A DNA stretch of 64,000 bases, taken from contig CAKUXP010000002.1 in NCBI GenBank assembly GCA_934700345.1, forward strand, positions 50,515 to 114,514, in the 5' to 3' direction. The position numbers were made by a program, and so were the translations under genes. A model generated the notes under the pieces. It saw only the letters and a list, made by a program, of their open reading frames with translations, did no database searches and had not been told where the DNA came from. Below, in pieces: positions 19,258-44,281 of the stretch (its first letter is position 1; each line of letters opens with the position of its first letter). The stretch comes from an uncultured Fibrobacter sp. Lineage in GTDB: Bacteria > Fibrobacterota > Fibrobacteria > Fibrobacterales > Fibrobacteraceae.

Positions 19258-19291
19258 AAATCAGAATTTTACTCCGAGGTAGGAATTTTCA

Positions 19292-21049: not shown

Positions 21050-21295
21050 TTGCAACAACCCCCAAGGCCACGCTTATCATCGAATGAGAAATTAGGAGTG
21101 AGGAATGAGGAGTTAGTCCGCGGACGTCTAAGTTTAGTGGACAGTGATTAGTGGGCAGTGAGCAGAGACGCAGACGTCTAGGTTTTTGGGATGAAGGAGT
21201 AGGGATTAGTTTGCGGACGTCTAAGCTTTTGGGAAGCGGTACGAGGAACACGGGATTCAGAGCTTAGTTGAGAGTGCTTAGAATTTAGAACAGCG
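21050..21295 (+). repeat. Direct repeat copy 2 (~246 bp), >90% identical to copy 1 apart from a 50-bp deletion and a 7-bp insertion
   Basis: Read directly from the sequence; the two copies lie 380 bp apart. Confidence 0.85.
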
Positions 21296-21610: not shown

Positions 21611-21730
21611 AACAAACAGAGCAAAAATTATTACTTTCTATCGGCTTTTGTGGGCGGAAAGGCGCTTTTTCTGTATTTTGGAAAACGTTTTTTGCCCTGC
21701 ATGTATGATGACGTCCGGATTGAAACGAAA

Positions 21731-24700: not shown

Positions 24701-27700
24701 CCGCCGGTAGCCATCAACGGGACGGAAGGCAACTCGGGCGAACGCGCTTATGATACGGAAGATATCAACAGGAACGGCTCACTCGACACGGACATCGGGT
24801 TTGTCCGCTACCGGATAGACCTTTCCGACAACGATGACGCCCATTTTGAAACGCTCAAGAACGGCTGGCGCAAATGGAAAATTCCGCTCGACCAGTTTGA
24901 CACGGTCGTTTCCAAAAACGGCGAAAGTTACCAGACGATTCTGGCCCAGGCGCAGTTTTCGAGGCTTTGGATGGGAAAGCTCAATAACGGCGTTGCCGAG
25001 GCGAAGGTGCAGATAGTGAAGCTTGGCGTGATGGGAAATTCCTGGGAAGCTTCAAACGTTTCGAGCAAGTTCGTCACCTCTTCGACGGGCGGTTCGCAGA
25101 CGGCAATCGTTGACGGCAGCGAAGTGGATATTTCGGGTTCGACGACGACATCCGACACGACCTACCTGAACGTTTCGACGATCAACAACCGCGAAAATTC
25201 GGGGACGTATTACAAAAGCCCGAACACCAAGACGGAACGCGACTCGGAGACGAACGCCGCGCTGAAGGAAACGGCCCTTGTCCTGACATATAAGAACCTT
25301 TCGCCGGGACAGTCGGTCGGTGCAACGCGGACTTTCGATTCGGACGAAAAGGACTTGACGAAGTACAAGACGCTCAAGATGGAAATCCACTATACGACCG
25401 ATGCGACGCGGACTCCGGTGCGATTCGCTTTCCAGTTCGGGGAAGGATCGCTGGAAGGTTCGACGGATTATTACGAGTGGAGCTTTAGGCCCGTGAAGAT
25501 CAACTGCTCGGCAGCGGAGCGGGCTGCGGATTGTCACGAACGGAACTGGCTCGCAAACGCGTTCTCCGAAAAGCTCTCCGCGTTTTCCGACCTGAAGAAG
25601 GGGCGCCGTCCACCGTTCCTCGAAGCGGTCGTCGATTCTATCGGCGGCGAAAGGGAAGAAGTCTTGAAGCTTGTCGGAAACCCTTCGACGACTTCGGTGG
25701 ACTGGATTCGCTTTGTGATTATCGCGGACGAGGACGCTTCGCCTGCGGATCTCGAAGGCGAATTCTGGATTGACGATTTGCGGCTTTCGGGAATGGATAA
25801 CGACTGGGGCTATGCATTCCGCACTTCGGGCCAGGCGAACTTTGCGGATTTCCTTTCGGTTTCCGCATCGGCGCGTTACCAGGACGGAAACTTTGCGACG
25901 CTTTCGACAAGCGGATCGTCGCCCAAGCCGACGCTTTCCGAAGCGGAATCCAAGCTGGACATCGCCGCGGATGCGAGCGTGAACTGGAACAAGTTCTTTG
26001 CCGACGAACAGGGATTCCACATGCCGATGAGCATCGGCTACAGCAGCACGACGGAGCGTCCCTACCTGAAGCCGACGGACGATTTGGAACTTTCGCATGA
26101 TAACCTGGGCGATTTTGCAAAGGATGTTTGGGACGGCAAGTTGACCGTTGAAAACGCCGACGAGGAACAGAAGATTCGCGACGACGCGGAGTCTCGCGGA
26201 TACCAGTCGTTCAGCCGTACGCGCCGCTTCAGCTTTAGTTACAGCAAGGATTACAAGGAAGAATCAAGCCCTGTCAAGGAAGTCCTTTCGCAGATTTTCC
26301 TGGAGCGTCCGGCGTGGAGCTACAGCTATACGGAGACCGAGTCCCGATCGACGACATCCGCGGATTCCTCCTATTCGTATCACACGATCATCGAATACAG
26401 CCTCGGAACCTTTAACCGATTCAACTACAAGCCTTTTAGCTTCTTGAAAAATTCGTCATGGGCGAAGAGCTTTTCCGATGCGTCGTTTGAACCGTGGCCG
26501 CAGACGATAGACCTCACCCTTTTCGACCTGAGCTATATCCGCTATGTGAACCAGGAGCGCGACCCGGACTTTACGGAACCGCAGACGGCAAAGACCGTCA
26601 CTTACACGGTGGATCTTTCGCACAAGGCAAATCTTCGTTGGAATATCTTCCCCTTTCTTTCGACAAGCTACAGCCTGAACATCTCTCGCGACATGTACGG
26701 TGGCGGTGACCAGGAAGATTTTGCAAAAGAGAATTTCTGGACGTTCAAGAACGGCGGATTGTTTGCCGCGGACGATATCTTCGACTTTGACCATACGGAC
26801 AGGAAAGTCTATGTCTCGCCGGACAGCGTCGTCATCATACCCTACGATACGGTCGCCGTGGTGAATGCAAAAGGCGATACAGCTTTAATCGACATGGACG
26901 ATCCGAGTACCTACCGGATTTTATACGACAGCACGGTCTATTACAAGGTTGATAGCGTCGGGCATCGCGAATACGGACGCGCTTACGGTATTCTCAAGAA
27001 TGAACGTAGCCGCAGCCAGCAGTTCAAGACGACGTTTAGTCCCGCAGTGATCCCCTTCCTTCCGATGTCATTCTCGTTTACGTCTTCGTTCCGGCAGCAA
27101 AAGACGATTCCCGACGAGTATGACCTGTACGATCCGACGATGATCGAGAAGAACTACTGGACGATTTCCCAGACGAACCGCTTCGAGTTTACGCCGTCTT
27201 TCCGCATTGTAAATTTCTTGAAACTTTTTGGCGACAAGAACGCGGCTGCGGGATTCTTCGAAAAGCTCAAGTGGCGTGACGTGAAGGCTGCGTGGACGGT
27301 CGATATCTCCACGGTGGGCGAGAACTTCACCCTGTCGCAACTCTATGAAGAACAGGGCGTGACACCGTTCCAGTATTACCTTTACGGCCTAGGCATCGGA
27401 AACGGCTACCGGAACCGCGGAATTTGGAACATCGTTTCGGGCGACATGGGACTTGACCATCGGAACGATTACACGCGTTTTGCGCAATACCGGAACGGAC
27501 ATGTCGATACGCTCGTTTACCAGGGGAACTTCACCCATTCGGTAAACCGGACGCTTAACCTCTCGACAGGATTCACGCTTCCGTTCTGGAATATAGGCAT
27601 TGTAACGGATATGCAGTGGAAACAGGACTTTAGCCAGTCGCGCGAATATCCGCTCTATACGGATTCGACGATTGTCTGGCCGAAGTGGGGCGTCGGCGTA

Positions 27701-28507
27701 ACCGTACCGAATTTCTCGCAGCGCGTCGGATTTTTGAACTCTTTCCGCAGTGTAAGCACGACGCATCGGGTCGATTATACGCATACGCGGGTTTCTAGGC
27801 CTTTCCAGAGCGCGGAAGACAGTTGGACAACGACATGGAATTTCAATCCGCTGATCCGCATCAGCTTTCTCACCCAGCAGAACATCCGTATCGAGGACAA
27901 TACCTATCTCAAACTGGAATTTACCGATCGGCGTCCCAAGCAGGAAGTCATCTCGCAGACGAACTGGCCGTCGAATGTCGAGGACCTTTCGGATACGACA
28001 AAGTATTTCTACACGCCTTGGATGCCGACCGCGCTTTACAAGGATTTCGGCTACAATGTCGGAAACGACTTGACGATTTCCTACCCGCTCAAGACGAAGC
28101 GCGGATTCCAGTTCTGGAAATGGTACTTCAAACTGAAAAACGATATCGATCTTCGCCTTACCGCCGGCTATGAATACACGAAGACGATTCGGGAATCCTA
28201 CGAGCCGGTTTCCGGCTACAACATGAACGAGAAAAACGAGGCGGCGGGCGATGTCTATCGGCGTTGGAACATCAACGGCAGTGATTACACGGTCTATTTT
28301 CCGAAGCTCGAAAAAACGGAGCGGACAGTTCCTTCGCGGGTTCACGAATGGTTTGTCCGCCCGAGCGCCGGTTACCAGTTCAACAAGATGGCGAGCATGA
28401 GCGCCTATATCGAATACCGTCAAATTCACGAAAAGCTCGACGACGAAACCGCTCACACGGAGCAGATCCTTTCGTTTGAAATCGCGCTTCTCCTGAGATT
28501 CAACTAG
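21731..28507 (+). CDS. Giant (~2260 aa) secreted outer-membrane protein, SprA/Sov-like (candidate type IX secretion translocon)
   Basis: Signal peptide MKRLLAVFALLVSLSPAEP at ATG 21731. The in-frame track ORF starts at 21650 (GTG). Size, abundant alternating aromatic and polar beta-strand-like segments, and S/T-rich loops are consistent with the SprA family (TIGR04189-like). The assignment is by size and composition, not by a named motif. Confidence 0.45.
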   Translation: MKRLLAVFALLVSLSPAEPADSAVSENAVSSGKSSVQYIPLPPSVTPLSDLVPKSGIGQSDRLMNPPKSERFEHNIDFENREMEVSKKYVNPISRDTAEMWSATYPEIASYVSDMYDIGFNRLWLNSFAGQKDGGYAAPEGATLYDIDIPINMPSWMKDFGLDKPKLMLQGTMDIRLSGRGEKDDAPGSTKDNLFPSPTLSYDPSFMVKGKIGPYITVEVNNVESGLGAKNQIRVVYEESYKDEFEDYILQRIEAGTTSLALPGTELTGYSENHKGLFGIKAEWKLGDWWLTTIASQDGGSQEKYTINASTSTTEFQIQDKQFVAYRYYFLNQEARSNYVSAGLAGRSTSPYAATNLKLYRRAPTNTTTNVVENITAVYVTPSGARVEKKIDRLVPMSANDYSYDSKTGIVKVLGANKNTLIAASFSDDGTGRSGTTVNNNSRVVLIQWDATLSELEGIDKLMLRNVYSVGISDESASSFVLRLKNKSGVSSSYLKTLGLVDSTTGTVLTGDATIFKKDASGTYTGEMWLPCRPLSWYSGANSSARARENCLEPFRNVDSSAAMANLYSLPVSNIASKYTSRFYFESVGKRRNSVISVRDPNSSYSVSAGSCMDISEGSEKLKAGSTVLTRGVDYDVNYELGQIELLSETALDPNKEISVEFECEPLFEIDNKVLLGARAELPLSRYGFGNGSLFGITALYKSQSTTASTPTLGSEPYSSFLWGMNLRLQDTTKWMTDVVNWIPGIETKAASNWRFETEFASSYHDANTSSGKTALLEDFESSESGLVYPLSRLSWYQASPPGGVDTDPSTYIESQDYKHKGEFIWHSNNTVLYKHIYPTVGNSDVDNQRLTVLKLTLRPNDNLMGNSWGGIMRPNSSYYQDLSDMKYIEVVARGNVGSIYLDLGLVSEDLSINGDAPNGQYDGENDLGTTTALHDKGLDGLSGSEEHLTVWDCRMNGCVSTIKTSANSDATNTDIARDNFDDSLDDASDPPVAINGTEGNSGERAYDTEDINRNGSLDTDIGFVRYRIDLSDNDDAHFETLKNGWRKWKIPLDQFDTVVSKNGESYQTILAQAQFSRLWMGKLNNGVAEAKVQIVKLGVMGNSWEASNVSSKFVTSSTGGSQTAIVDGSEVDISGSTTTSDTTYLNVSTINNRENSGTYYKSPNTKTERDSETNAALKETALVLTYKNLSPGQSVGATRTFDSDEKDLTKYKTLKMEIHYTTDATRTPVRFAFQFGEGSLEGSTDYYEWSFRPVKINCSAAERAADCHERNWLANAFSEKLSAFSDLKKGRRPPFLEAVVDSIGGEREEVLKLVGNPSTTSVDWIRFVIIADEDASPADLEGEFWIDDLRLSGMDNDWGYAFRTSGQANFADFLSVSASARYQDGNFATLSTSGSSPKPTLSEAESKLDIAADASVNWNKFFADEQGFHMPMSIGYSSTTERPYLKPTDDLELSHDNLGDFAKDVWDGKLTVENADEEQKIRDDAESRGYQSFSRTRRFSFSYSKDYKEESSPVKEVLSQIFLERPAWSYSYTETESRSTTSADSSYSYHTIIEYSLGTFNRFNYKPFSFLKNSSWAKSFSDASFEPWPQTIDLTLFDLSYIRYVNQERDPDFTEPQTAKTVTYTVDLSHKANLRWNIFPFLSTSYSLNISRDMYGGGDQEDFAKENFWTFKNGGLFAADDIFDFDHTDRKVYVSPDSVVIIPYDTVAVVNAKGDTALIDMDDPSTYRILYDSTVYYKVDSVGHREYGRAYGILKNERSRSQQFKTTFSPAVIPFLPMSFSFTSSFRQQKTIPDEYDLYDPTMIEKNYWTISQTNRFEFTPSFRIVNFLKLFGDKNAAAGFFEKLKWRDVKAAWTVDISTVGENFTLSQLYEEQGVTPFQYYLYGLGIGNGYRNRGIWNIVSGDMGLDHRNDYTRFAQYRNGHVDTLVYQGNFTHSVNRTLNLSTGFTLPFWNIGIVTDMQWKQDFSQSREYPLYTDSTIVWPKWGVGVTVPNFSQRVGFLNSFRSVSTTHRVDYTHTRVSRPFQSAEDSWTTTWNFNPLIRISFLTQQNIRIEDNTYLKLEFTDRRPKQEVISQTNWPSNVEDLSDTTKYFYTPWMPTALYKDFGYNVGNDLTISYPLKTKRGFQFWKWYFKLKNDIDLRLTAGYEYTKTIRESYEPVSGYNMNEKNEAAGDVYRRWNINGSDYTVYFPKLEKTERTVPSRVHEWFVRPSAGYQFNKMASMSAYIEYRQIHEKLDDETAHTEQILSFEIALLLRFN

Positions 28508-32542: not shown

Positions 32543-33187
32543 ATGGCGACCTGTAAATATTGCGGTGCGCCGCTTCTCGAAAACGTTCCGGTGTGCAGCT
32601 ACTGTCACGCAAAAATCGATGTCGATCTTTCGGCGAAAGGTTTCCAGACGGTCCATGCTCCGGAAAAATTTCGGATATGTCCGGTTTGCAAAAAGGAAAT
32701 GAATGTTTTAAACATCGGGCAGAAAGGCGATCCGTTTTTCATCGACCGCTGCCCGACATGCCTCGGAATTTTTCTGGATACCGGAGAGCTGGATGCGATT
32801 GTCCGCGAAACGGTTCCGTCCGTTCGCCACGTCAACATGGAAAAGTTGAAACAGTTGAAACGCGAAATGCTTGATTACAACAAGACGGTTTCCTATCGGG
32901 CGTGCCCGGTTTGCGGAAAGCTGATGAACCGGGAGAATTACGGAAAGTTTTCAGGCGTTATCGTCGATCGTTGCCGAGAACATGGCGTCTATCTGGATGC
33001 CGGGGAATTGCAGTTGATTCAGCGTTGGGTGGCTGCGGGCGGGAATCTGCAGACGCTTCCGGAGCCCTGTATTGCGAAACGTGCGGATGCATTCCGTCGG
33101 TCGGAACCTGAAGCGGATGTTTTCAAGAGGCGCTCAGCAAGATCCGTCGATTGGCTTCTCCAGAAACTGGTGGATTTGATATTCTAG
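32543..33187 (+). CDS. Double zinc-ribbon protein (two zf-TFIIB-like CxxC...CxxC modules)
   Basis: ATG at 32543, 3 nt after the SPFH stop. CKYCGAP...CSYCHAK; CPVCKKEM...DRCPTCLGIFLDTGELDAI; CPVCGKLM...DRCREHGVYLDAGELQLI. The second and third pairs match the zf-TFIIB (PF13453) pattern. Confidence 0.55.
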   Translation: MATCKYCGAPLLENVPVCSYCHAKIDVDLSAKGFQTVHAPEKFRICPVCKKEMNVLNIGQKGDPFFIDRCPTCLGIFLDTGELDAIVRETVPSVRHVNMEKLKQLKREMLDYNKTVSYRACPVCGKLMNRENYGKFSGVIVDRCREHGVYLDAGELQLIQRWVAAGGNLQTLPEPCIAKRADAFRRSEPEADVFKRRSARSVDWLLQKLVDLIF

Positions 33188-33199
33188 ATTTACGCCGCC

Positions 33200-33724
33200 A
33201 TGAAAAATTTGGAAGATTATATTGTGAGCGTCCTGGACTTTCCGAAGCCGGGGATTGTCTTTCGCGACATCACCGGAATCCTGGATTCGCCCGAAGGGCT
33301 CCATCTCGCTTTTGAACGTCTCTACAAGGCGCTTGAAAACATCGAATTCGATGTCGTCGCCGGGCTCGAAGCGAGGGGCTTTCTGTTTGGGGTGAGCCTC
33401 GCCGAGCATTTTCACAAGAGCTTTGTACCGATCCGGAAAAAGGGGAAGCTCCCGCGGGAAACGGTTTCTGCGACGTATGAACTGGAATACGGCAACGCGA
33501 CCATCGAAATGCACCGCGACGCGATAAGGCCCGGGCAGAAAGTGGTCCTCTTTGACGACCTGCTAGCGACCGGTGGAACGATGAACGCCGCGGCCTCCCT
33601 CGTGGAAACCGTCGGCGGAACCGTTGCGAAAACGCTTTTTATCGTGGAACTCTTTGACTTGGGCGGCAGACAGAAACTGTCAAAATACGATGTGACGTCC
33701 CTCGTCAAGCTTCCCGGACATTGA
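33200..33724 (+). CDS. apt: Adenine phosphoribosyltransferase
   Basis: 174 aa. PRPP-binding motif VVLFDDLLATGGT and N-terminal DFPKPGIVFRDIT. Confidence 0.9.
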   Translation: MKNLEDYIVSVLDFPKPGIVFRDITGILDSPEGLHLAFERLYKALENIEFDVVAGLEARGFLFGVSLAEHFHKSFVPIRKKGKLPRETVSATYELEYGNATIEMHRDAIRPGQKVVLFDDLLATGGTMNAAASLVETVGGTVAKTLFIVELFDLGGRQKLSKYDVTSLVKLPGH

Positions 33725-33748
33725 GAATTTTTATTCGACGGAGAAACC

Positions 33749-35170
33749 ATGTTGGAAAAACTCTTTAAAATCACCGAGAACCGTTCTAGCGTTCGAACCG
33801 AAATCCTGGCGGGTCTCACCACGTTCATGACGATGGCGTATATCCTTGCGGTAAACCCCAGCATCCTTTCCGCTTCGGGAATGCCCAAGGGCGGCGTTTT
33901 TATCGCGACGGCTCTCGCGGCGGCTCTTGGCTCGACGCTGATGGCGCTCTTTTCGAACTATCCCTTTGTCCTCGCTCCAGGTCTCGGGCTGAACGCGTTT
34001 TTCTCCTACACGGTTGTCATCACGATGGGATACAGCTGGCAATTTGCCCTGCTTGCCGTCTTTGTCGAAGGCATTGTCTTTCTTGCGCTTTCGCTCACCT
34101 CTGTCCGGGAAAGCCTTTTCAACGCGATTCCGCTTTCGCTCAAGTCCGCCGTGGCGGTGGGCATCGGGCTTTTCATCACGTTCATCGCGTTTCAAGGGGC
34201 AAAGATTGTCGTCAATTCCGATGCGACGCTCGTAACGGTCATCAACTTCCACCGGGCGGATTTTCACACGACGGGAATCTGGGCGCTTCTCGCGATCATC
34301 GGGACGATTGTCACGGGATTTCTCGTTTCGAAAAAAATTCGGGCGGGAATTTTGCTCGGCATGTTCATCACGTGGTTTCTAGGCGTTCTCGCGGAACTTG
34401 TAGGAATCTACGTGCCGGATGCTTCCAAAGGATTTTTCTCCGTGGTCCCGCATTTTGGAAACTACTTCAGCGATTTGGGCAAGACTTTTTCGGAATTCGG
34501 GTCGATAGCCTTTGCCATTTTCCATCCGTCGTCTTGGACGCATTCGGTAAACGGCGCCGTGGATTTTTCGGGCTGGACCCTCGTCAAATCCTTGGACTTC
34601 TTTGTCGTGATGTTCGCCTTTTTCTTTGTCGATTTGTTTGATACGCTCGGAACGCTCATCGGCGTTTCGCTCAAAGGCGGCTTCCTGGATGCGAACGGAA
34701 AGCTTCCTCGGATTTCGGGCGCCCTCTATGCGGATTCCATCGCGACTTCGGTTGGAGCCGTTCTCGGAACTTCGACCACGACGACTTTTGTCGAAAGCGC
34801 AGCGGGCGTCGCCGCCGGGGGAAAGACCGGGTTCACGTCCATCTTCGCCGCGTTCCTGTTCATTGTATCAATTGTTTTCGCTCCGGTATTCTTGGCGATT
34901 CCCGGGTTTGCGACGGCTCCGGCCCTGGTCATTGTCGGCTTTTACATGATAAGCTCCGTATCGAAAATCGAGTTCAAGGATTATTCCAAGGCGATTCCCG
35001 CGTTCCTGTGCATTGTCGCGATGCCTCTAACCTACTCGATTTCGGACGGGATCATGTTCGGCGTAATCTCCTACACGGTGCTGAACTTTGTCCTCGGAAA
35101 GCGGAAGGATATCCATTGGATCATGTACATTCTGACCGTGCTCTTCGTGCTGAAATACGCTTTGATGTAG
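33749..35170 (+). CDS. NCS2 family nucleobase permease (AzgA/PbuG-like adenine/guanine/hypoxanthine permease)
   Basis: ILAGLTTFMTMAYILAVNPSIL and an ~14-TM architecture typical of the AzgA subfamily. Adjacent to apt. Confidence 0.8.
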   Translation: MLEKLFKITENRSSVRTEILAGLTTFMTMAYILAVNPSILSASGMPKGGVFIATALAAALGSTLMALFSNYPFVLAPGLGLNAFFSYTVVITMGYSWQFALLAVFVEGIVFLALSLTSVRESLFNAIPLSLKSAVAVGIGLFITFIAFQGAKIVVNSDATLVTVINFHRADFHTTGIWALLAIIGTIVTGFLVSKKIRAGILLGMFITWFLGVLAELVGIYVPDASKGFFSVVPHFGNYFSDLGKTFSEFGSIAFAIFHPSSWTHSVNGAVDFSGWTLVKSLDFFVVMFAFFFVDLFDTLGTLIGVSLKGGFLDANGKLPRISGALYADSIATSVGAVLGTSTTTTFVESAAGVAAGGKTGFTSIFAAFLFIVSIVFAPVFLAIPGFATAPALVIVGFYMISSVSKIEFKDYSKAIPAFLCIVAMPLTYSISDGIMFGVISYTVLNFVLGKRKDIHWIMYILTVLFVLKYALM

Positions 35171-35190
35171 CGAATCGTTTTTTGGAAAAG

Positions 35191-35218
35191 GACCGTCTTG
35201 CTGGCGGTCTTTTTTTTT
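35191..35218 (+). terminator. Rho-independent terminator after the permease gene
   Basis: GACCGtcttgctggCGGTC followed by a 9-T run. Confidence 0.6.
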
Positions 35219-35240
35219 GTGTGCACAATGCTTTGAAAAA

Positions 35241-35354
35241 TCGTTTCGACTTGTTATATTTCGATTCTCATAAAGAGGTTTTTAAATCAATGCATTTACG
35301 CGTCTTTTTCCTGTTGCTTCTTGTGTCCCTGGGGAACGTTCTTGCCGTGCAGTT
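35241..35354 (+). repeat. Cassette X copy 1: 5'UTR + RBS + signal peptide (MHLRVFFLLLLVSLGNVLAVQ), 114 bp
   Basis: 112 of 114 positions are identical to 36731-36844. The two copies are fused to completely different downstream coding sequence. Confidence 0.9.
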
Positions 35355-36366
35355 GCCCCAAGCGGTTTTTGCAGTTGGAAAGACTCAATACATAGAAACA
35401 GAGAAAAAACAAAACTACAGAATCTGTCTAGAAAATAATCAAAAAGGATTTTGGGATGGATCCATTCCGTTTGTGATGTCGACGGAAAATTGCCTTTTGG
35501 TGACCACTCCAAATCGAACAGGAAGTTTTTTGTTCGTACACTTTAACGATTCGATTTCCTCAGATAGCATTTGGCTTTTAAACAACCAAAAATTAATCGA
35601 TTTGTCAAAAGACGTTCATTTGTTGTGGAGTTTGGATTCCGTTGTTGGACCGTTCAACAAAAGACGCGTGTATGGTTCGTATAAAGCGACTCGATTGAAC
35701 AAGATTCTTGTCGTCGATCGAACGGAAGCGACGGTTGGCGAAGTAAAATATCTGTGTGATTATTTTGGAGTGGCTTACAAAGCTTCTAATTCGTGGTATC
35801 CAGACAATAACGCGTTAAATCATCCCGATATGCCACAAGATCCGGGGTTTGCCACAGTTCCTAATTACGCTAACAATAGAAGTAAACTGGAAGGTTTTGA
35901 AATTTCTTCGTATGCAAACGGAGCGGATACAACCAAAAACGGGTATCGGCTTCCTACTCGAGATGAATGGGTTGCTTTACAGAGAGGCGCTTCTAAAAAA
36001 GATTATTATTGGGGAAATGACACGGATTCACTAACCATTTCCCAATATGAATGGTATAGGTCCGCCAAGGAACGAGTTCATGATGTCGGGTTGTTGAAAC
36101 CAAATCCGTACGGATTATATGATGTCATGGGAAATGCGATTGAATACACTTTACAGGGACGCGAATGTGTCAGCAAGGATGAAAAATCTCGAGAATGCTT
36201 TATAAAAGACGATTTAAAACAACACGAGGCAAAGAACGTTTGCTATACGCGTATAAAATATAATGCGGATAAAAAAATACAAACAAAGGAGTGTCGTGTC
36301 GGATTTTCCCTAAACGAATTTTGGGGCTTCAGATTGGTCCGCCAGCTTTTTATAGATAATCATTAG
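35290..36366 (+). CDS. Secreted FGE-sulfatase/SUMF1-domain protein (paralog A), AT-rich body
   Basis: Signal peptide from cassette X. NGYRLPTRDEWVALQRG, PNPYGLYDVMGNAIEYT and C-terminal GFRLVRQLF are hallmark FGE-sulfatase domain motifs. The true start is the ATG at 35290; the track ORF from 35008 overlaps the permease. Confidence 0.7.
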   Translation: MHLRVFFLLLLVSLGNVLAVQLPQAVFAVGKTQYIETEKKQNYRICLENNQKGFWDGSIPFVMSTENCLLVTTPNRTGSFLFVHFNDSISSDSIWLLNNQKLIDLSKDVHLLWSLDSVVGPFNKRRVYGSYKATRLNKILVVDRTEATVGEVKYLCDYFGVAYKASNSWYPDNNALNHPDMPQDPGFATVPNYANNRSKLEGFEISSYANGADTTKNGYRLPTRDEWVALQRGASKKDYYWGNDTDSLTISQYEWYRSAKERVHDVGLLKPNPYGLYDVMGNAIEYTLQGRECVSKDEKSRECFIKDDLKQHEAKNVCYTRIKYNADKKIQTKECRVGFSLNEFWGFRLVRQLFIDNH

Positions 36367-36683
36367 ATGGTAAAAAACATGAAAGCCAAAATAATTCTTT
36401 TTCAAGCCTTGACGGTGTTGGCTTTTTCGGTGGTGGCCGAAATGTCTCGCTTCTTTCATGCTGCCTATACTATATTTTTCTGTAAAGATAAGTTTTGCCG
36501 ATGTTACGAAAACCAATGGGATTGTCTGCATCGTCTGTCGGAAGAGAGCTGCGCGGATCCTGAAATGTGGAGGATTGACTGATGAAAATTTTTACTTGGT
36601 TCACCGTTCTTTTTCTAGTATTGAGCGAAGTCTTTGCGCTGGAGTACAATGCCGTATTCAATGCGAAGGGTGTGCCGCTTTGA
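36367..36683 (+). pseudogene. Two gene remnants. The first is the 5' end of a paralog-B-like gene (MKAKIILFQALTVLAFSVVAE...). The second is a truncated paralog-C-like start (MKIFTWFTVLFLVLSEVFALEYNAVFNAKGVPL*) preceded by cassette Y.
   Basis: ggtaaaaaacatgaaagccaaaataattcttttt parallels ggtaaaaaccatgaaaatcaaaataatccttttt at 41477. Positions 36504-36673 are ~88% identical to 42876-43046 (cassette Y plus the first ~30 codons of paralog C), then stop abruptly at TGA 36681-36683. Confidence 0.55.
36504..36673 (+). repeat. Cassette Y copy 1: 5'UTR (GGAGG RBS) plus start of a paralog-C-like ORF, truncated
   Basis: Read directly: acgaaaaccaatgggattgtctgca(t/c)cgtctgtcggaagagagctg(c/t)gcggatcctgaaatgtggaggattgac(t/c)gatga(a/g)aattttta... 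is shared with 42876-43046. Confidence 0.85.
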
Positions 36684-36730
36684 AAAAAAACGAAAACTAG
36701 TCTTTTTTTTGTAAACAAAGTTTTGGAAAT

Positions 36731-36844
36731 TCGTTTCGGCTTATTATATTTCGATTCTCATAAAGAGGTTTTTAAATCAATGCATTTACGCGTCTTTTTC
36801 CTGTTGCTTCTTGTGTCCCTGGGGAACGTTCTTGCCGTGCAGTT
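36731..36844 (+). repeat. Cassette X copy 2
   Basis: See copy 1. The two copies are 1490 bp apart. Confidence 0.9.
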
Positions 36845-39797
36845 CCCCCATTCGAAATGGAACCTCGCCACCTATCACGGAGCCTACGCGATATTCGGCG
36901 AGGGCTTTGTCTCCGTGACGGACGGAGGCTCCGACTATTGGCATGTGCAGCTGACTAGGAGCGGCATCGAGCTGCGTGCCGGGAAAACCTACGAAGTACG
37001 GTTCTTCCTGCAGGGCGTAAGCGCGAGGCGTTATGTGGAGGTCCGCATCGGCAGGGACGGTTTTCCGTACGACGCGTTTGCCGAGTTCGGCGAGGTCGTG
37101 GCGACCGCGAACGGAAGGACGGTGACGAGAACTTTCACGATGCAGTCGGGAAGCGTAAGCAACGCCCGGTTCGAGTTCAATCTGGGCAAGGCTACGGGAA
37201 CGGTATATGTCGCCGACATTAGCCTGGACTGCCTCGATTGCGGCGATGATGTCGGAGCCGGCGATTTGCCGGTGTTTCCCGGGGAAAACCTGGACTATGC
37301 GGTCGTAGCCGATACGGTCGATTTCCGGGACGGCTCCATGTCCTTGGGGAGCGTGTTCGGGACAAGGCTTGAACTGGGGGCGGACTCCAAAGTCTTCGGC
37401 GATGTCGATGTCGCGGCGGCGTGCTTCCTTCGGGAACGCACAAAAATTGATGGCGGCTTGCGCTACGGGCGTCCGTGCGCGGAGCAGAACGGCGTGTCCG
37501 CGAAGACGAAAAGCGCCGCCAAACTATCGAAACCCGCATTCGGCGTCCCGAATATCGTTCCCGGGATTTCCCCGGTTTCTGTCGGATTGAAACAGTCCGC
37601 CGAGCTTCCTCCCGGGAGTTACGGGACTTTCTATGCCGCGGCGAAGTCCAGAATCCGTTTTTCTTCGGGAGCTTACGCGTTCCAGTACTTTTACACGGAA
37701 CCCGATGCTGAAATAATTTTTGACTTGTCCGCTGGGCCGGTTACGGTCGGCGTGTCCGGAAGCGTTCGCTTTGGCGACAGGAACCGGTTCTCCGTTATCG
37801 GTGGAAACCCGAGCGAAATTTTGTGGAACGTTTCCGGGGAAAGAGTCGATATGGGGACCGACGGCCTTTATTTCGGAAAATTTGTCGCCCCGGATGCCTG
37901 CGTGCGCATCCCCTCCCGTTCGCATCTCGTCGGTGGCGTCTATGCGAGAAAGTTCGCGATCGAGCCGCAATCGACCGTGTCCAGGGAACCTCGCGCCAGG
38001 GAAATCTCCCACAGCGAAGAGCACTTCGGGCCATTTTTCGAACCGGGAAGGTTTCGCTACCGTTCCCAGGTTTCGCCTTCCCTGTCCAGGATAGAGATGT
38101 TCGTCTATGCGGACAGCCTCCAGGTCACGGTGAATGGAGGCCCTTCAAGGGTCGTTGAGCTTTCGTCTTCGGAAGTTTCTGTCAAAGTGTCGCTCAGGCG
38201 GAACCCGGTGGCGGGGTTCCCTTCCGAAGCGTTCCGCAGCAGCTATCGGTTTGACTTTCTGAAAAATGCGAATTACCGCATCTACTGGAATCCGCAGACG
38301 CCGTGCAGGCAGGGTTGCGACGGGATGACCGCGGCGACGGCCGTCGGCGATTTTGGAAAGGCTCTCGAAACGGCAAGAACGACCGGTCGGGAAATCAACA
38401 TGGCCGGCGGGACCTGGAACGCCTCGGAAAGTTTCCCGGACAGCGTCGTCTCCTGGAAAGTGGGCTTCGAGCTTGTCGGCAACACAGAAAACCTGGGGGA
38501 CCTGTCTTCCGAAAACGACCTGCCCCTGATCGATTTGGGAAATGCCTCCCACATCGAGATAGAGGGGCGCTCTCCGCGCAGCCTGACCGGTTTCCGCATC
38601 GCGAACGGATACAATGCCGGTGACGGCGGCGCAATTTATTCGAACAGCCAGAAGCTCGGGCTTAAAAATCTTCTGGTTTCTTCGTCAAAATCTGGAGGTG
38701 CTGGCGGTGCGGTCTTTGCTTCCGATACGATAAATTTGGAAAATGTCCGTATTTTAAAAAGCTCGTCATTTGGAAACGGAGGAGCTGTTTCTGTCGGCGG
38801 ATTCGCAAAGTTTCTCAACGTTCTGTTTACGGAAAATACTTCTGCAAAAAATGGTGGGGCGCTTGGATTGAATGGTGCAAATGCTTATATTGGAAATGGC
38901 ATATTTTATGGAAATCGATCCGGACTTTCTGGCGGAGCGGTTTACAATGAAAATTCTTTGCTCAATATATGGAATTCAACGTTTTTTGCAAATTTGGCAA
39001 CTACGGCAAACGGAGCTCTTGGGGGAAATGCAAAAGGAATGATTGGAAATAGCATTTTTTGGAAAAATATCACTTCTAAATGCAGCTCAGAAGATTGTTC
39101 TTCGGAGGTCGTTGTTGGTTATTCCGCTACAAATTCCTCCTTTACAAATGCTTATGTTGGCAATAACATTTATGTTGGTGATCCGAAGTTTGCGGATGAA
39201 AAAAATCCAGAAGGCAGAAATGCATATATGGATTATGATGCAGGAATCAACTTGTCCGAGGACTCTCCTCTTTTAAAAGCGGGAATAGCGGATATAAATG
39301 TTCCGACTGACGATTTACTGTCGGAAATTCGAAATATGGCGAATATTGCCTTGGGTGCCTATGCGTATGCAAAACCTAAGCGTGAAACATCTTTTGGTGT
39401 ATTAGATAAGGATGGATCGGTTGTTTCAATAAAGCCTTCAATTCCCTTGATAAATGCAATTTCTGGAGATTATTACAGGGAATATCTAGCGACATCGCCT
39501 TATGCTCGTGTTTGGAAGGCGACGGTTAAAAAGCACAAGAAAACAAAAAAAGATAAGGCTCATGTCAAAATGTGGGTAGTGAACAGACGTGGTGAAAAAA
39601 TTACAAAAGAACCCGTAGAATTTGAAGTTTACCGAAATGGGGAAGAGAACGGTCGCTATGTATTTCAAACGATGACCAAAACTGCCGGTAAACCGGTTTT
39701 ATTTTCGATGCGCCCTGAAGATGCTGGAAATTATAAGGATGCTATTGTTTTATATATGAAGTCTGTTTCTGATTATTTCTATTACGAGGCGGAATAG
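36780..39797 (+). CDS. Large secreted surface protein (1006 aa): N-terminal CBM4/9-like domain, central repetitive region, parallel beta-helix with Pmp/GGA-type repeats. The C-terminal ~380 aa are compositionally distinct (AT-rich).
   Basis: Signal peptide from cassette X (ATG 36780; the track ORF from 36723 includes UTR). The CBM-like region is WHVQLTRSGIELRAGKTYEVRFFLQG. The beta-helix shows repeated GGAIYSN / GGAGGAVFAS / NGGAVSVG / NGGALGLN / SGGAVYNE. G+C drops abruptly near 38640. Confidence 0.6.
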   Translation: MHLRVFFLLLLVSLGNVLAVQFPHSKWNLATYHGAYAIFGEGFVSVTDGGSDYWHVQLTRSGIELRAGKTYEVRFFLQGVSARRYVEVRIGRDGFPYDAFAEFGEVVATANGRTVTRTFTMQSGSVSNARFEFNLGKATGTVYVADISLDCLDCGDDVGAGDLPVFPGENLDYAVVADTVDFRDGSMSLGSVFGTRLELGADSKVFGDVDVAAACFLRERTKIDGGLRYGRPCAEQNGVSAKTKSAAKLSKPAFGVPNIVPGISPVSVGLKQSAELPPGSYGTFYAAAKSRIRFSSGAYAFQYFYTEPDAEIIFDLSAGPVTVGVSGSVRFGDRNRFSVIGGNPSEILWNVSGERVDMGTDGLYFGKFVAPDACVRIPSRSHLVGGVYARKFAIEPQSTVSREPRAREISHSEEHFGPFFEPGRFRYRSQVSPSLSRIEMFVYADSLQVTVNGGPSRVVELSSSEVSVKVSLRRNPVAGFPSEAFRSSYRFDFLKNANYRIYWNPQTPCRQGCDGMTAATAVGDFGKALETARTTGREINMAGGTWNASESFPDSVVSWKVGFELVGNTENLGDLSSENDLPLIDLGNASHIEIEGRSPRSLTGFRIANGYNAGDGGAIYSNSQKLGLKNLLVSSSKSGGAGGAVFASDTINLENVRILKSSSFGNGGAVSVGGFAKFLNVLFTENTSAKNGGALGLNGANAYIGNGIFYGNRSGLSGGAVYNENSLLNIWNSTFFANLATTANGALGGNAKGMIGNSIFWKNITSKCSSEDCSSEVVVGYSATNSSFTNAYVGNNIYVGDPKFADEKNPEGRNAYMDYDAGINLSEDSPLLKAGIADINVPTDDLLSEIRNMANIALGAYAYAKPKRETSFGVLDKDGSVVSIKPSIPLINAISGDYYREYLATSPYARVWKATVKKHKKTKKDKAHVKMWVVNRRGEKITKEPVEFEVYRNGEENGRYVFQTMTKTAGKPVLFSMRPEDAGNYKDAIVLYMKSVSDYFYYEAE

Positions 39798-39799
39798 CG

Positions 39800-41476
39800 A
39801 TGTTTGGAGATTTGGTGAAATGGTGTCTGCTTCTTTCTTTTTTTATGACTTTGATTGCTTGTGATGACGACAAGGTCACTGGGAATACGCGTAAAGAAGA
39901 TTGCGATGAAAGCAACAACCCAAATTGCTATAAGACTATACCGGGAGTTTCTCCGATAAGTGGTGATTATGATTATAAGTCATATGATGATGGGGATGTG
40001 GTCACGTTCCAATGGGACCAGACGCTGGCTTGGTTTCTTCAATCCGAAAATCACCAATATGGTTATGATCGAGATCCTTTTTCAAATTTAGAAGATTATG
40101 TGGAACGCGGAAAGGATGTGTATATGTCTGTCCTAAAAGGTGAAATGGCAAAAGTGAAAATTGTTGTAGACCAAAATTCAAAAAAGATTTATCGAGTGCA
40201 TCGAATTAGTGAAAATAAAGAAATTTTAGAAAAAAATATTATCGTTGGAACGGATGTGTGTCAAGAAAAAAGCTGTGTAAAAGAATACGCCTTGCCTGTT
40301 GGACATTATGCTGTATTTTATGATGAATTGGATAAAAAAAGATATTTGCACATAATTGAATACTCAAAAAAGACGAACGATATTTATTTTGTGCAGCTTG
40401 GAGATGAATATGGAAATACATGCAATATCGGAAATGCTAATGGATGTTATACCAAGAAATCTGTTCAGGACAATTATAACCGAGTGATGGCTCAGGTGGT
40501 AACTGAGGGAAATTTTATCGAAGTCGATCCGACAAAGATGGATTTGGAAACGGCAGGACCGAATAACATTCTTATTGTTGATTTGAATAGTACGAAAGAC
40601 TCAAAATTACCGCTTGTCAATCAAATCTATGATAAAATTTTAGCAAGCAAGGAATTTGGCTATGGGAATGAAGAGGAAAAATATAACGAGATTAGAGAAA
40701 AATATGAAAACGGTGAAGTAGATGTTTCTATCTTCAATTATGCTGTCGAAGCTTATAATTCCGCTGTGTTACGGCATCGGCAGAAGCATATTGTTTTAGC
40801 GATTAACGAAATGCGGATACGATGGAAATTTTTTATAGGGGATGATTACTCTTTAGGCAATTTGAGTGCGTTTGAACGCGCTTGTGAAGTGGATGAAGAT
40901 GTTTGTCAATCGGGTTCTTTGGCTATGACATTGGAAAGTAGCTGTGGCGATAAGGACGTCCCTATAAAATTGAGTGTTGCAAAAACAAAAGACAACGATC
41001 AGTTTATTCCTAAGATTTCTGGATTTGGGGCTTTAAAAAATGGTTGCGAATACAGTATCTATGCGGATGTTTATCCTTTTGTCCCCGATGATCCGAATGC
41101 CGCCCAAATAACCATCACTAACTATAAATCGGAAAAAGATAAAACGGTAATTGGTGGCATGGTATGGGGAAGTCATTTGAATGGTTCTGCTTCACTGAAT
41201 ACGATTGTTCATGAAATCGGTCATTCGTTTGGTTTGACGGATTTACATAAGGATCCAAATGACCCTTCCAATGCTCCAGAACGTTATTACTATTTTGCCT
41301 TTAATGAAGGCAATATCATGGCGAGCTATGTGCCGTCCGGAGAACGGCTTCGTTATCGACCGCTTTTTGTTGTAAATACGGGGACTAACGATAGGATTCT
41401 TTTAGGAAATGGGTGGTATGCCACCGAAAACCAGTGGGATTGTGTCCGTTCAACAAGTAAATGTTATAAAAAGTAG
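39800..41476 (+). CDS. AT-rich lipoprotein with an HExxHxxGxxD putative zinc-metallopeptidase motif
   Basis: Lipobox FFMTLIACDDD. HEIGHSFGLTDLH near the C-terminus. Starts 3 nt after the previous stop. Markedly AT-rich; the ORF itself is confident but the function is not. Confidence 0.5.
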   Translation: MFGDLVKWCLLLSFFMTLIACDDDKVTGNTRKEDCDESNNPNCYKTIPGVSPISGDYDYKSYDDGDVVTFQWDQTLAWFLQSENHQYGYDRDPFSNLEDYVERGKDVYMSVLKGEMAKVKIVVDQNSKKIYRVHRISENKEILEKNIIVGTDVCQEKSCVKEYALPVGHYAVFYDELDKKRYLHIIEYSKKTNDIYFVQLGDEYGNTCNIGNANGCYTKKSVQDNYNRVMAQVVTEGNFIEVDPTKMDLETAGPNNILIVDLNSTKDSKLPLVNQIYDKILASKEFGYGNEEEKYNEIREKYENGEVDVSIFNYAVEAYNSAVLRHRQKHIVLAINEMRIRWKFFIGDDYSLGNLSAFERACEVDEDVCQSGSLAMTLESSCGDKDVPIKLSVAKTKDNDQFIPKISGFGALKNGCEYSIYADVYPFVPDDPNAAQITITNYKSEKDKTVIGGMVWGSHLNGSASLNTIVHEIGHSFGLTDLHKDPNDPSNAPERYYYFAFNEGNIMASYVPSGERLRYRPLFVVNTGTNDRILLGNGWYATENQWDCVRSTSKCYKK

Positions 41477-41485
41477 GTAAAAACC

Positions 41486-42856
41486 ATGAAAATCAAAATA
41501 ATCCTTTTTCTCGCCATTGCGGTGCAGGCCTTTGCCGCCAAGGATTCTCTCTACGAAATCAATGGAACGGTTTTTAACAAGGAACACGGGCCGAGAGGTC
41601 CCAAGGCGATAGTCAAGGTTTCCCGTACTGTACCGAGGATAAAGCCGCTCCGCGCAAGCGAGGATTCGTTTCAGGTTTCCTTGAGAAAAGGTGGAGATGA
41701 GCGTTGGCTTGAAATGGAAAAGAATACGGTCTATTCCGTCTGTGTCGATGATGATGGCGGCTTTTGGAAAGTTGAAGATTTCAAGTACGAAAAAGAGGGA
41801 AGTTCATGCATTAGATTGCATTCCGGGAATTACGTGAAAAACGGGAAAATTCAGTATGCGACCAGGATGGGCAACGGTTACACTTTTCAGTTGTTGGTCG
41901 GAATGAAGTACATCGATCTCAGGGGGAAAAAACATCTTTTGGGGTATTTAGAGCTGGGCGAAGGCTTCTATTACAAGGAAGGCCTTTGGTATCCGATCGA
42001 TCCGGGAAGGTACGAAGCTATGGACAAGGTTCTGGCTGTGGATAAGTATATGGTCACCGAATGCGAATTTGTTCAGGCTCTGTGGGACTCCATTCCTGCG
42101 CAAGCCAAAAGGGAGTACCAGAGGAATCATCCCTTTTGGATAGAGAAAAAAAAGACCATGACGAAAAACGGATTTTGCGATGCGCATGATTCCGCGGTGG
42201 TCCGTGTCAATTTGTACTATGCCCTTGTCTATGCGAATCTTCGAAGTGTTCGGGACGGTTTTCAACCGGTCTATTCTTTCGAATGGACGGATAATGGATA
42301 CGGCCTTGCGGAAGACGGCAGCTTTGTCATTTCCGATGTCAATTTTCACGTAGAAAACTCGGCTGTCCGCGTGAGGATAGATACAAGCGCGAACGGCTAT
42401 CGTTTGCCCTATTACGATGAATGGATGGCGTTGGGACGCGCCGGACATGATTATACGTTTTATGTATGGGGCCGTGATGGCGATTCCGCAATTGCCGCTC
42501 GGCACGCTTGGTTTGGCGTCCGGGACCCGGAAGACAAGTATTTAAAAATGAACAGGAACGATTGGAATGAACGAAGCCGCTTGGAACGTTCTTGCGGGAA
42601 ATGGCTACAAAAATCTAAGCCGGTAGGAATGCTGAAACCGAATGACTACGGATTGTATGACATGTTTGGTCTTGTGTGCGAAAACGTTATCATGGAAAAA
42701 CACCAGGTATATTTCCATGGGGTTGCGGCTACCTGCAAGGGCGGCTTTTTGGCGGATACCCTCAAGGCGTTGAACTTTAAAGCGAAGTGCAGGACTGATT
42801 TTTTTGATCCGGAAAGACTTTTCCAAGGATTGCGCCTGGTCAGGCAAATCAAGTGA
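41486..42856 (+). CDS. Secreted FGE-sulfatase/SUMF1-domain protein (paralog B)
   Basis: Signal peptide MKIKIILFLAIAVQAFAA. VTECEFVQALWD, ANGYRLPYYDEWMALGRAG, KPNDYGLYDMFGLVCENV and C-terminal GLRLVRQIK. Confidence 0.7.
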   Translation: MKIKIILFLAIAVQAFAAKDSLYEINGTVFNKEHGPRGPKAIVKVSRTVPRIKPLRASEDSFQVSLRKGGDERWLEMEKNTVYSVCVDDDGGFWKVEDFKYEKEGSSCIRLHSGNYVKNGKIQYATRMGNGYTFQLLVGMKYIDLRGKKHLLGYLELGEGFYYKEGLWYPIDPGRYEAMDKVLAVDKYMVTECEFVQALWDSIPAQAKREYQRNHPFWIEKKKTMTKNGFCDAHDSAVVRVNLYYALVYANLRSVRDGFQPVYSFEWTDNGYGLAEDGSFVISDVNFHVENSAVRVRIDTSANGYRLPYYDEWMALGRAGHDYTFYVWGRDGDSAIAARHAWFGVRDPEDKYLKMNRNDWNERSRLERSCGKWLQKSKPVGMLKPNDYGLYDMFGLVCENVIMEKHQVYFHGVAATCKGGFLADTLKALNFKAKCRTDFFDPERLFQGLRLVRQIK

Positions 42857-42875
42857 TGGTGCAAAATGTTGAAAT

Positions 42876-43046
42876 TACGAAAACCAATGGGATTGTCTGC
42901 ACCGTCTGTCGGAAGAGAGCTGTGCGGATCCTGAAATGTGGAGGATTGACCGATGAGAATTTTTACCTGCTTCGCCGTTCTTTTTCTGGCGTTGAACAAA
43001 ATCTTTGCGTTGGAGTACCATGTCGTATTCGATGCGAAGGGGCGGC
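42876..43046 (+). repeat. Cassette Y copy 2 (intact; drives paralog C)
   Basis: See copy 1 at 36504-36673. Confidence 0.85.
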
Positions 43047-44281
43047 TTATCGGAAAAACAGAGGGCTCGGCAAAGATCGGTTACGAGAATTTCGGGAAAG
43101 GCGCCTATTTTGTACTCCGTAAAGGCACTGCGGATAAAAAATCGCCGGAATATAAACGCTCCGTTCCCGCCTTAGAATCTGGTCGGACAAGGTGGTATGA
43201 GGCGGAAAAAAATGAACATGTCAAGATTTGCCCGTCCAATTCGTCGAGCGGAGGAGTTTGGCTTGCCAAGATTCAAGCCGAGGTGGATGCTTCAAACTGT
43301 CTCGGTGTCTTTACGGGTCAATTTGTCCGGAGTCTTTTCGCCCTGTATGTTCCGGACACTTTGAAAATGGAATCTGCGGATACGAGCTGGATTCTTGTCG
43401 GACAAAAAATCGCGCCCATTTCGAAGGGAACGCATCGTTTCTTCGAGGGGAAAGAAGCTCCGCTTCGAAAGATGCAAAATCCGGAATCGGGATATCGAGA
43501 TATAAATTTCTCTTATGATTTGATTGTCGATGCTATGGAGTTCCGTGTGGGCGATGCGGAATGGTTGATTGGTTCGGCTGAAACAGACTCTTTGATAGGA
43601 AAGGACTTGGATTTCATTGATGAACGGAAACTTTTTAACCGAAGTTCCTTGCCCATGGAAACATCGGAAATATATCGCCTGGCAAACGCCCGCAGCGCAC
43701 GTGACGGCCTAGATTCCGTGTACAGGCTTTTACCAAAGGATGTGTGGGAAAAAAGCGGGCTTCCCTTTTTGGACATTTCCGAACGGAGAAATTTAGTCCT
43801 TGTACTTGACACTTCTGCGAATGGCTACCGAGCGCCTTTTTTTGAAGAATGGGCCGCTCTGCAACGCGCAGGAGGTTCGGGAGATTTCTTCTGGGGTAAC
43901 GATAATTCTCTGTCTGGAGAAGCGATCAAATACGAACAACTGTTTGGGGATACGGCCTCTGCCTTTTGCCGTCCGTCGGGCCAAAAGACGCCGAATCCGT
44001 ATGGCCTGTACGATGTCTATGGAAATGCTTTGGAATATGTCTTGAAACGGTCCGTATCGTCGGGGCGTTATTACCACATGATCGAATGCCAAACGGATTT
44101 TAAATATGACCGCAGCCCGGTGTGTTCTCTGTTCTTTGACATGGTCGGCTACAGGGCGAGCAAGAGGCGAAAAATCTGCATCGGAGAGTTTGATGCAGAG
44201 GGAAATGTCTCCGAGACATGCACGCCCTATATGAAGCGGACCTTTGTCAAAGGCTTCCGCCTTGTGCGAAAGCTGCGGTGA
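42953..44281 (+). CDS. Secreted FGE-sulfatase/SUMF1-domain protein (paralog C)
   Basis: Signal peptide MRIFTCFAVLFLALNKIFA. ANGYRAPFFEEWAALQRAG, PNPYGLYDVYGNALEYV and C-terminal GFRLVRKLR. Confidence 0.7.
   Translation: MRIFTCFAVLFLALNKIFALEYHVVFDAKGRLIGKTEGSAKIGYENFGKGAYFVLRKGTADKKSPEYKRSVPALESGRTRWYEAEKNEHVKICPSNSSSGGVWLAKIQAEVDASNCLGVFTGQFVRSLFALYVPDTLKMESADTSWILVGQKIAPISKGTHRFFEGKEAPLRKMQNPESGYRDINFSYDLIVDAMEFRVGDAEWLIGSAETDSLIGKDLDFIDERKLFNRSSLPMETSEIYRLANARSARDGLDSVYRLLPKDVWEKSGLPFLDISERRNLVLVLDTSANGYRAPFFEEWAALQRAGGSGDFFWGNDNSLSGEAIKYEQLFGDTASAFCRPSGQKTPNPYGLYDVYGNALEYVLKRSVSSGRYYHMIECQTDFKYDRSPVCSLFFDMVGYRASKRRKICIGEFDAEGNVSETCTPYMKRTFVKGFRLVRKLR

Follow-up and report, generated by a model that had tools for sequence, protein, structure and literature searches.

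A truncated operon gene carrying its neighbour's leader in an uncultured Fibrobacter: a likely case of leader duplication, microhomology fusion and later gene conversion

In an uncultured Fibrobacter we examined two neighbouring genes, here called A' and B, which begin with almost the same leader, that is, promoter-like site, ribosome-binding site and signal-peptide codons, and then continue into unrelated proteins. Both lie in the window analysed here, a stretch of 64,000 nucleotides (nt) that is a piece of a 175.7-kb metagenome scaffold from ENA; all coordinates below are window positions. Comparing the locus with that of related strains, we have shown that A' has the sequence of a 5'-truncated copy of a gene of the same operon (gene A), bearing the leader of B. 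The explanation that we consider likely for the whole arrangement is that the leader of B was duplicated and fused to a beheaded gene A, and that the two leader copies were made alike by a later gene conversion.

Results

A repeat search found the two leader copies as a direct repeat of 148 nt (35213-35360 and 36703-36850) with 93% identity and a spacing of 1490 nt. Base by base, the copies differ at 35219, 35223, 35224, 35229, 35231, 35236, 35240, 35249, 35253 and 35355, and the stretch 35254-35354 is a run of 101 nt without a mismatch. A sequence-only reading of this DNA had claimed two mismatches in the 114 nt at 35241-35354, in a segment spanning the ribosome-binding site and the signal-peptide codons. 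We found exactly two, at 35249 and 35253, and the segment contains the motif AAAGAGG, the start codon (35290 and 36780) and 21 identical codons, encoding MHLRVFFLLLLVSLGNVLAVQ. The weak similarity that had been seen further upstream, into the T-runs, extends to about 35190. Downstream, the likeness stops at 35360 and 36850, where A' goes on with an FGE-sulfatase body and B with a CBM_4_9/DUF7305 body; this sharp boundary, which had also been pointed out, is a true recombination junction. The 57-nt stretch from ATG to GCC has two exact occurrences in the window and had no match in 100 shuffles, and neither exact-match nor repeat searches gave a third leader copy within the 64 kb.

Gene A' codes for 358 amino acids (aa), with a Pfam match to FGE-sulfatase (E 9e-13) at residues 190-351, all inside the body that was retained from gene A. 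Its closest relative, P0121 (406 aa), shows 99% identity over A' residues 22-358 alone, corresponding to 94% of the query. P0121 and its relatives start with a signal peptide of their own, MFCKKILLVLNFIVISSYG, followed by 48 further residues; both are missing from A', which aligns with residues ~70-406 of P0121-P0123 (406-408 aa). At the nucleotide level the body is 98.5% identical to the canonical gene A of locus L006. Between the A' alleles of the window and of L002 we obtained a ratio of nonsynonymous to synonymous substitution rates (dN/dS) of 0.12, with a dS of 0.25, a ratio to be read with the caution that recombination with canonical A alleles may have imported part of the divergence.

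The two parental sequences could be followed up to the point where they meet. By BLAST, 33000-35360 corresponds to the permease and the leader, and 35356-36425 to the A body together with the first 60 nt of the gene for a 456-aa FGE-like protein (the 456 gene; L005, L006), and these two matches overlap at 35356-35360. Here B reads ...GCAGTTC-CCCCA-TTCGG, A reads ...GCTGCA-CCCCA-AGCGG and the fusion reads ...GCAGTT[C/G]-CCCCA-AGCGG, 2-4 residues past the predicted signal-peptide cleavage site between VLA and VQ, which was read by eye from the n-h-c layout. Judged from these sequences, the fusion is an illegitimate in-frame join at 5 nt of microhomology and a true recombination junction, and its survival in frame is most simply explained by selection. 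The earlier idea that conversion was targeted to the 5' module did not hold, as nothing targets the module and its boundary is the 5-nt microhomology.

The comparison of strains also shows the owner of the leader. It is native to gene B and not a free cassette, because the B orthologues of strains with a single leader carry the signal peptide MHLR[VI]FFLL... This signal peptide was found in the B orthologues P0001, P0002, P0004, P0021, P0024 and P0025. A single leader stands directly after the permease in L003, L004, L006, L008 and L009, and some of the MHLR[VI]FFLL... orthologues come from such strains, whose B orthologues have the same or a closely related signal peptide and upstream region. 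The B family is conserved at full length across Fibrobacter, with at least 120 homologues at ~100% coverage. The exact record of the window's B protein was not found, and P0001, a relative with 98% identity, is on record.

A dispersed cassette was tried as a candidate and rejected. A degenerate pattern of 29 nt, wide enough for every leader variant known, gave 0 matches in JGI metagenome contigs and two single-copy matches in GTDB genomes, both before B. These searches brought up no other gene bodies behind the leader.

Both leader copies have a promoter-like site (Table 1), which we take as putative and sigma-70-like; that of copy A also fits TTTG-N19-TAnnTTTC, as a consensus match alone. An RNA element in the shared 5' untranslated region was rejected, since the search against Rfam (E<=1) returned no family and only one meaningless sub-threshold match. 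In front of copy A the permease gene keeps an intact intrinsic terminator, whose counterpart in front of copy B has decayed. Our terminator scan, with a loop limit of 3-8, missed the intact one because its loop has 9 nt under strict G-C/A-T pairing, and it was recovered by folding.

Homologues of A' and B with a named source are all from Fibrobacter (F. sp. UWEL, F. intestinalis); the others come from metagenome records or records of metagenome-assembled genomes, and several related contigs carry Hadza gut metagenome names. The locus is preceded by apt and a xanthine/uracil-family permease. In the empty-site strains L003, L004, L008 and L009 this permease lies directly 5' of gene B. Canonical operons, in which A stands downstream of B and of a 51x gene, were found in L005, L006/L007, L010 (F. 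intestinalis), L011/L012 and L013, the fullest order being that of L013, B - 518 - A - 456 - 437. The order in the window is permease - leader copy A - A' - remnants - leader copy B - B. Instead of A'-B, further strains show either an empty site or a canonical operon. The remainder of the window's operon (39800-44281) contains no canonical gene A, and its order (558 - 456 - 44x) is the same in L003 and in the A'-bearing loci. L003-type strains have no A in the locus at all.

The A' form (358 aa) is present as at least six protein variants within one 90% cluster. Variant P0140 occurs on 23 contigs from many sequencing runs, and the order is invariably permease - A' - B - 558 - 456 - 44x; canonical A is missing from the locus on these 23 contigs, where A' is the only A copy. 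Variant P0145, a partially converted allele, was seen on five further contigs, and the frame of 358 codons is unbroken in at least six alleles on ~35 or more contigs. This recurrence rules out that the A'-B structure is an assembly artefact; the leaders in those other loci are too different to confuse an assembler.

Between A' and leader copy B the window holds pieces of genes that belong to the downstream part of the operon. The remnant of the 456 gene (36367-36426) is 79% identical to window positions 41476-41533. The 51x/44x remnant (36504-36670) is 95% identical to L005 12499-12665 and 90% identical to window positions 42875-43041; when translated, it corresponds to the C-terminal ends of 51x proteins. 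The resulting order, A body - 456 start - (51x 3' remnant) - 44x start, is that of L013. At the other side, the 5' part of leader copy A is identical to the single leader of L006.

The history of the leader copies became apparent when copy A was compared with copy B in eleven loci, with positions numbered from the ATG. In eight of them (L002, L014, L015, L017-L021) the copies differ at 13-16 of 43-44 positions from -77 to -37, at 10-12 of 38-39 from -36 to -1 and at 10 of 63 from +1 to +63. The corresponding values are 9/41, 1/36 and 6/63 in L022 and L023, and 9/41, 0/36 and 0/63 in the window. From -36 to +63 we thus counted 20-22 differences in 101 positions in the eight loci, 7 in 99 in L022 and L023 and 0 in 99 in the window; all ten other A'-bearing loci differ between their copies and the window alone has no difference. 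The upstream differences specific to copy A are kept in all loci (9-16 of 41-44, those of the window at 35219-35253), and therefore the change is an internal patch and not a crossover.

Among the strains, copy A forms a graded series: it is of the alpha type throughout, of the copy-B type through codon 5 (L022-L025) or of the copy-B type through codon 21 (window alone), and the copy-B-type patch of L024 has a longer 5' extent. Six sites (35314, 35316, 35322, 35339, 35346 and 35347) separate the window from the intermediate allele, and at each of them the window has taken on the copy-B state; it also has a private base at 35355. Compared with an L014-type copy A, 17 sites differ between 35270 and 35347, again in addition to 35355. 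The minimal conversion tract is given in Table 1, and at its longest the tract covers 35254-35354. Internal patches whose ends vary are, as a sequence pattern, the signature of gene conversion from B to A, and the near-identity of the two copies is best explained by it. The recent recombination or conversion postulated earlier is therefore only partly upheld: conversion accounts for the near-identity, but the duplication itself is old, the copies being ~20% apart in most strains. On this comparison the duplication would be old and common in the population, and the homogenisation alone recent.

Table 1. Features of the A'-B locus, in window positions
Feature	Position	Strand	Description
Xanthine/uracil-family permease	33749..35170	+	Pfam Xan_ur_permease, E 7.5e-37; conserved left neighbour
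Intrinsic terminator of the permease	35185..35218	+	13-bp stem + T9, intact before copy A; fold -17.8 kcal/mol, z -3.8, 0/200 shuffles as good
Leader copy A	35213..35360	+	ancestral position directly 3' of permease; promoter-like site, ribosome site, ATG, signal-peptide codons 1-21; ends in CCCCA junction
Promoter-like site, copy A	35233..35260	+	TTGAAA-16-TATATT, TG before second hexamer; 10/12 consensus matches
Shine-Dalgarno-like site	35272..35278	+	AAAGAGG, 11 nt 5' of ATG; read from sequence
Gene A', 358 aa	35290..36366	+	fusion of B signal-peptide codons 1-22 with codons ~70-406 of the 406-aa FGE-sulfatase-like gene A
Minimal conversion tract in copy A	35314..35347	+	6 sites
Fusion junction	35356..35360	+	5-nt microhomology CCCCA; B codons 23-24 and A codons ~70-71
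456-gene remnant	36367..36426	+	first codons (start and signal peptide) of the 456-aa FGE-like gene; contiguous with A match; ends L005 15352, L006 11281
Stretch without match to any fetched locus	36427..36503	+	77 nt
51x/44x remnant	36504..36670	+	end of a 51x-type gene (25 codons), followed by the start and first 29 codons of 44x
Decayed counterpart of the permease terminator	36671..36702	+	before copy B; in alignments A-run/T-run kept, hairpin gone; fold -5.4 kcal/mol, z -0.1
Leader copy B	36703..36850	+	before native gene B; nearly invariant among A'-bearing strains examined
Promoter-like site, copy B	36723..36750	+	TTGGAA-16-TATATT; consensus match
Gene B, 1005 aa	36780..39797	+	Pfam CBM_4_9 and sub-threshold DUF7305 match; relatives named 'predicted outer membrane repeat protein' in some sources
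Operon remainder	39800..44281	+	558-aa gene, 456-aa FGE-like gene (41486-42856), 442-aa gene (42953-44281)

Other observations in the window and on related contigs

Small open reading frames (ORFs) lie between A' and copy B. Positions 36504-36687 and 42875-43058 form a second direct repeat, 86-90% identical, which comprises the end of a 51x-type gene with the start and signal-peptide codons of 44x and whose upstream copy is truncated and leaves an ORF of 33 codons at 36583-36684. A chimeric, cysteine-rich ORF of 67 or 71 aa (36367/36379-36582) consists of the 456 leader, the 77 unmatched nt and an in-frame 51x tail; it was called by gene callers and is 98% conserved in all A'-bearing loci.

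Over 33000-44281, alignment of the window to L002 gives blocks with zero differences (e.g. 38600-40000 and 40200-41400) in alternation with blocks that have diverged by 5-10% (34800-36200, 38000-38600 and 41400-44200). This pattern may be either a strain-level mosaic of homologous recombination or the result of strain mixing in the assemblies.

Gene B has a GC content of ~60% in its N-terminal 620 codons and of ~38% in its C-terminal part (36850-38640 versus 38650-41300), a split that orthologues from related strains keep and that is less marked in F. intestinalis. The nucleotide likeness to L006-type strains ends at 38641, where the GC content falls. When 38641-41476 was compared with L005, L006, L011 and L013, at least two nearly unalignable allelic forms of the C-terminal part of B and the gene after it were seen (B-C' with the 558-aa gene versus B-C with 51x and A), which suggests a strain-variable, recombination-rich surface locus. 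Several contigs from other samples (L006, L014, L016, L017, L019 and L020) have B or the 558-aa gene broken into two ORFs, at positions that vary between them; either frameshift alleles or errors of assembly could be the cause. We also considered, and rejected, that the low-GC insert is foreign or that gene B is a chimera, as the 60%/38% split and the low-GC A region are conserved in all orthologous operons; the insert is low in GC because it derives from the low-GC part of the same operon.

Elsewhere in the window, an intergenic cluster of direct repeats (20648-21285; units of 61-143 nt, 61-95% identical to reference copies) has the core AGTCCGCGGACGTCTAAGTTTAG with G-rich flanks and lies just 5' of a 2285-aa SprA-like gene (21650-28507), a family that provides the translocon of the type IX secretion system. 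A 51-nt stretch within 17341-19893, 65-75% identical, is common to three consecutive genes (16820-20596), which are probably tandem paralogues. Moreover, L009 (CAVKXR010000041.1), although labelled as an Oscillospiraceae bacterium, follows the Fibrobacter locus collinearly, with a nucleotide identity of 90-92%, and is probably misbinned.

Discussion

Overall, our data describe a gene that appears to have lost its own start and to have received that of its neighbour, and strain comparison supports each stage, from the ancestral operon and the empty site to the fusion allele and the graded conversion tracts. We infer the following order of events. The ancestor would have had the canonical operon permease - leader - B - 51x - A - 456 - 44x. 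A duplication, most simply in tandem, would have taken in the segment that starts at the permease terminator and ends a little way into 44x. In the upstream copy, a deletion at CCCCA between B codon 23 and A codon 70 would have fused the leader to the beheaded A, and most of the 456 gene would have been deleted as well. In the A'-bearing strains A' now stands in place of canonical A, which is absent from their operon, and B retains its own leader copy. In the strain of the window, a B-to-A conversion patch would finally have wiped out the differences across 35254-35354, and hence the 98% identity that had first drawn attention to the two genes.

If so, A' would be expressed from the copied promoter-like and ribosome sites of B and exported by a B-type Sec signal peptide, and would bear the FGE-like domain of A without ~48 N-terminal mature residues. 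The loss of the hairpin before copy B would permit read-through from A'. The proposal that both genes have the same secretion signal and probably the same regulation agrees with the ribosome site and signal peptide that they have in common, and with the promoter-like site that both copies keep. The two genes had also been described as unrelated. This is correct for their folds but not for their origin, since both come from one conserved Fibrobacter operon. A plain duplication of paralogues, which the sequence-only reading had named as the alternative, does not apply, the bodies behind the leader not being homologous.

Several observations weigh against this history or complicate it. The A' body of the window is nearer to canonical A (L006, 98.5%) than to the other A' alleles (93%), and therefore further recombination between strains, or strain mixing in the assembly, is required. 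The downstream copy has the 558-aa gene in place of 51x and A, so that a tandem duplication needs at least one extra replacement event; the 558-aa gene was rejected as a variant of 51x, to which it shows a marginal likeness at its two ends alone (E ~1e-3), and was treated as an alternative allele or gene. For the 77 nt at 36427-36503, local alignment to the 456, 51x and 44x genes of several loci was no better than with shuffled sequences. Among the loci compared we found no intermediate operon form on the path of duplication and deletion. Finally, the fully converted allele (protein P0141) is recorded on the window's own contig alone, and the last conversion step is therefore without an independent replicate.

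Part of these points could be taken to mean that the structure or the near-identity is not real, two strains having been joined at the repeat or variants having been collapsed during metagenome assembly. The window is indeed an ENA metagenome scaffold with the alternating blocks of zero and 5-10% divergence against L002, and the homogenised A' allele was seen on one contig alone. Nevertheless, we regard an artefact as extremely unlikely. The same order permease - A' - B, with the same junction and remnants, is present on at least 23 contigs from independent runs and assemblers, with leaders that are ~20% different in those loci and could not mislead an assembler. The copies in the window have distinct flanks and the private base at 35355, and to place a copy-B-type signal peptide in front of an A body requires spanning reads, the last B-specific site being 35347 and the junction 35356. 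It is also very unlikely that the copies are simply too young to have diverged, i.e. that a very recent duplication took place without any conversion. While the 101-nt identical run would fit, the 41 nt that adjoin it on the 5' side contain 9 mismatches, and copy B is preceded by a decayed terminator. Moreover, the structure is common to strains with a 7% difference in A' (dS 0.25) and ~20% different leader copies, and intermediate copy-A alleles, converted through codon 5 only, exist in other samples.

Two further explanations concern the function of the arrangement. The leader might serve as an expression or recombination site of a mobile or programmed cassette, at which bodies are swapped or A' is excised in a phase-like variation. 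Direct repeats of 101-148 nt around 1.34 kb could support a RecA-mediated pop-out, the population includes both strains that have A' and strains that lack it, and three leader fragments are clustered inside 1.5 kb. What makes such switching improbable is that there are just two copies in 64 kb, a single copy before B in two GTDB genomes and none in the JGI metagenomes, with A' and B as the sole bodies behind the leader. The leader allele of the empty-site strains is distinct and more divergent, and these strains are not recent pop-outs of this structure. No recombinase gene is evident among the called neighbours, and a recombinase domain was found neither in the nine neighbouring proteins scanned nor among the Pfam matches of the called genes. 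A transposon insertion was rejected as well; there is no transposase ORF, the 1.34-kb insert is made of operon pieces and the duplication measures ~150-170 nt, not 2-14 bp. The other explanation, which we think unlikely, is that A' is a decaying pseudogene remnant without function and the shared leader an irrelevant scar. A' has lost ~48 mature residues and adjoins obvious gene remnants, and L003-type strains manage with no A at the locus. Against this stand the intact 358-codon frame in at least six alleles on ~35 or more contigs, the dN/dS of 0.12, the retained FGE-sulfatase match (residues 190-351) and the fact that A' is the sole A copy at the locus of these strains. The duplication, fusion and later conversion of the leader of B thus remain our preferred explanation.

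A broader idea, to which we give a slim chance, is that operon leaders are preferred rearrangement breakpoints and the locus is a natural site of 'leader shuffling' that puts new bodies behind export signals. Within 1.5 kb there are three leader fragments (those of B, 456 and 44x), each cut 16-29 codons into the gene. If this were true, A' and the chimeric cysteine-rich ORF of 67/71 aa would be among its products.

The processes involved are known ones, for which the locus offers a clear natural case, and neither a new kind of element nor a new mechanism is needed. It illustrates how a secreted protein may be re-equipped with the promoter and the signal peptide of a neighbour, and how conversion may then keep a 150-nt repeat alike. 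For annotation it carries a warning, as A' would be mistaken for an ordinary FGE-like paralogue. For gut Fibrobacter, which in humans are largely uncultured, it marks the operon as a recombination-rich, strain-variable surface/secretion locus.

Surface-protein families such as sap of Campylobacter fetus, the vmp expression site of Borrelia and slp of Lactobacillus have a conserved 5' leader that is used for cassette exchange, with several silent cassettes of homologous genes, one expression site and often inversion. The locus studied here resembles them in having identical promoter-proximal and signal-peptide sequences before different bodies, and in recombination inside the shared 5' region. 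It differs in that two tandem copies, both apparently expressible, precede unrelated bodies and that there is no sign of programmed switching. Several leader-sharing cassettes were not found, with two copies in the window and one in each of two GTDB genomes; the repeats are direct, and the sole inverted repeats in 33000-40000 are weak (22-27 nt).

Experiments in E. coli have demonstrated that promoters can be captured through deletions and amplifications at microhomologies (Li and Bock 2019, PMC6614815; see also PMC11111574). As in that system, a gene without expression signals of its own would have come under the promoter of its neighbour, at a junction of a few bases of microhomology and in probable association with a segmental duplication. 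Unlike there, the capture is a polymorphism found in nature, which has become fixed in many strains of an uncultured Fibrobacter from the gut, and the in-frame protein fusion also moves the signal peptide and the donor leader is kept in duplicate.

For the second step, intragenomic conversion between the paralogous outer-membrane protein genes babA/babB, sabA/sabB and homA/homB of Helicobacter pylori is a close parallel, with a 3' segment reported to be under concerted evolution (PMC3960876). In both cases short tracts are homogenised between two loci while the remainder of the genes is different, the likeness within a strain is greater than that between strains, and the tracts vary among strains. 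The H. pylori genes, however, are paralogues over their whole length, whereas in Fibrobacter only the ~150-nt leader is common to two non-homologous genes, and the exchange seen here goes one way, from B to A.

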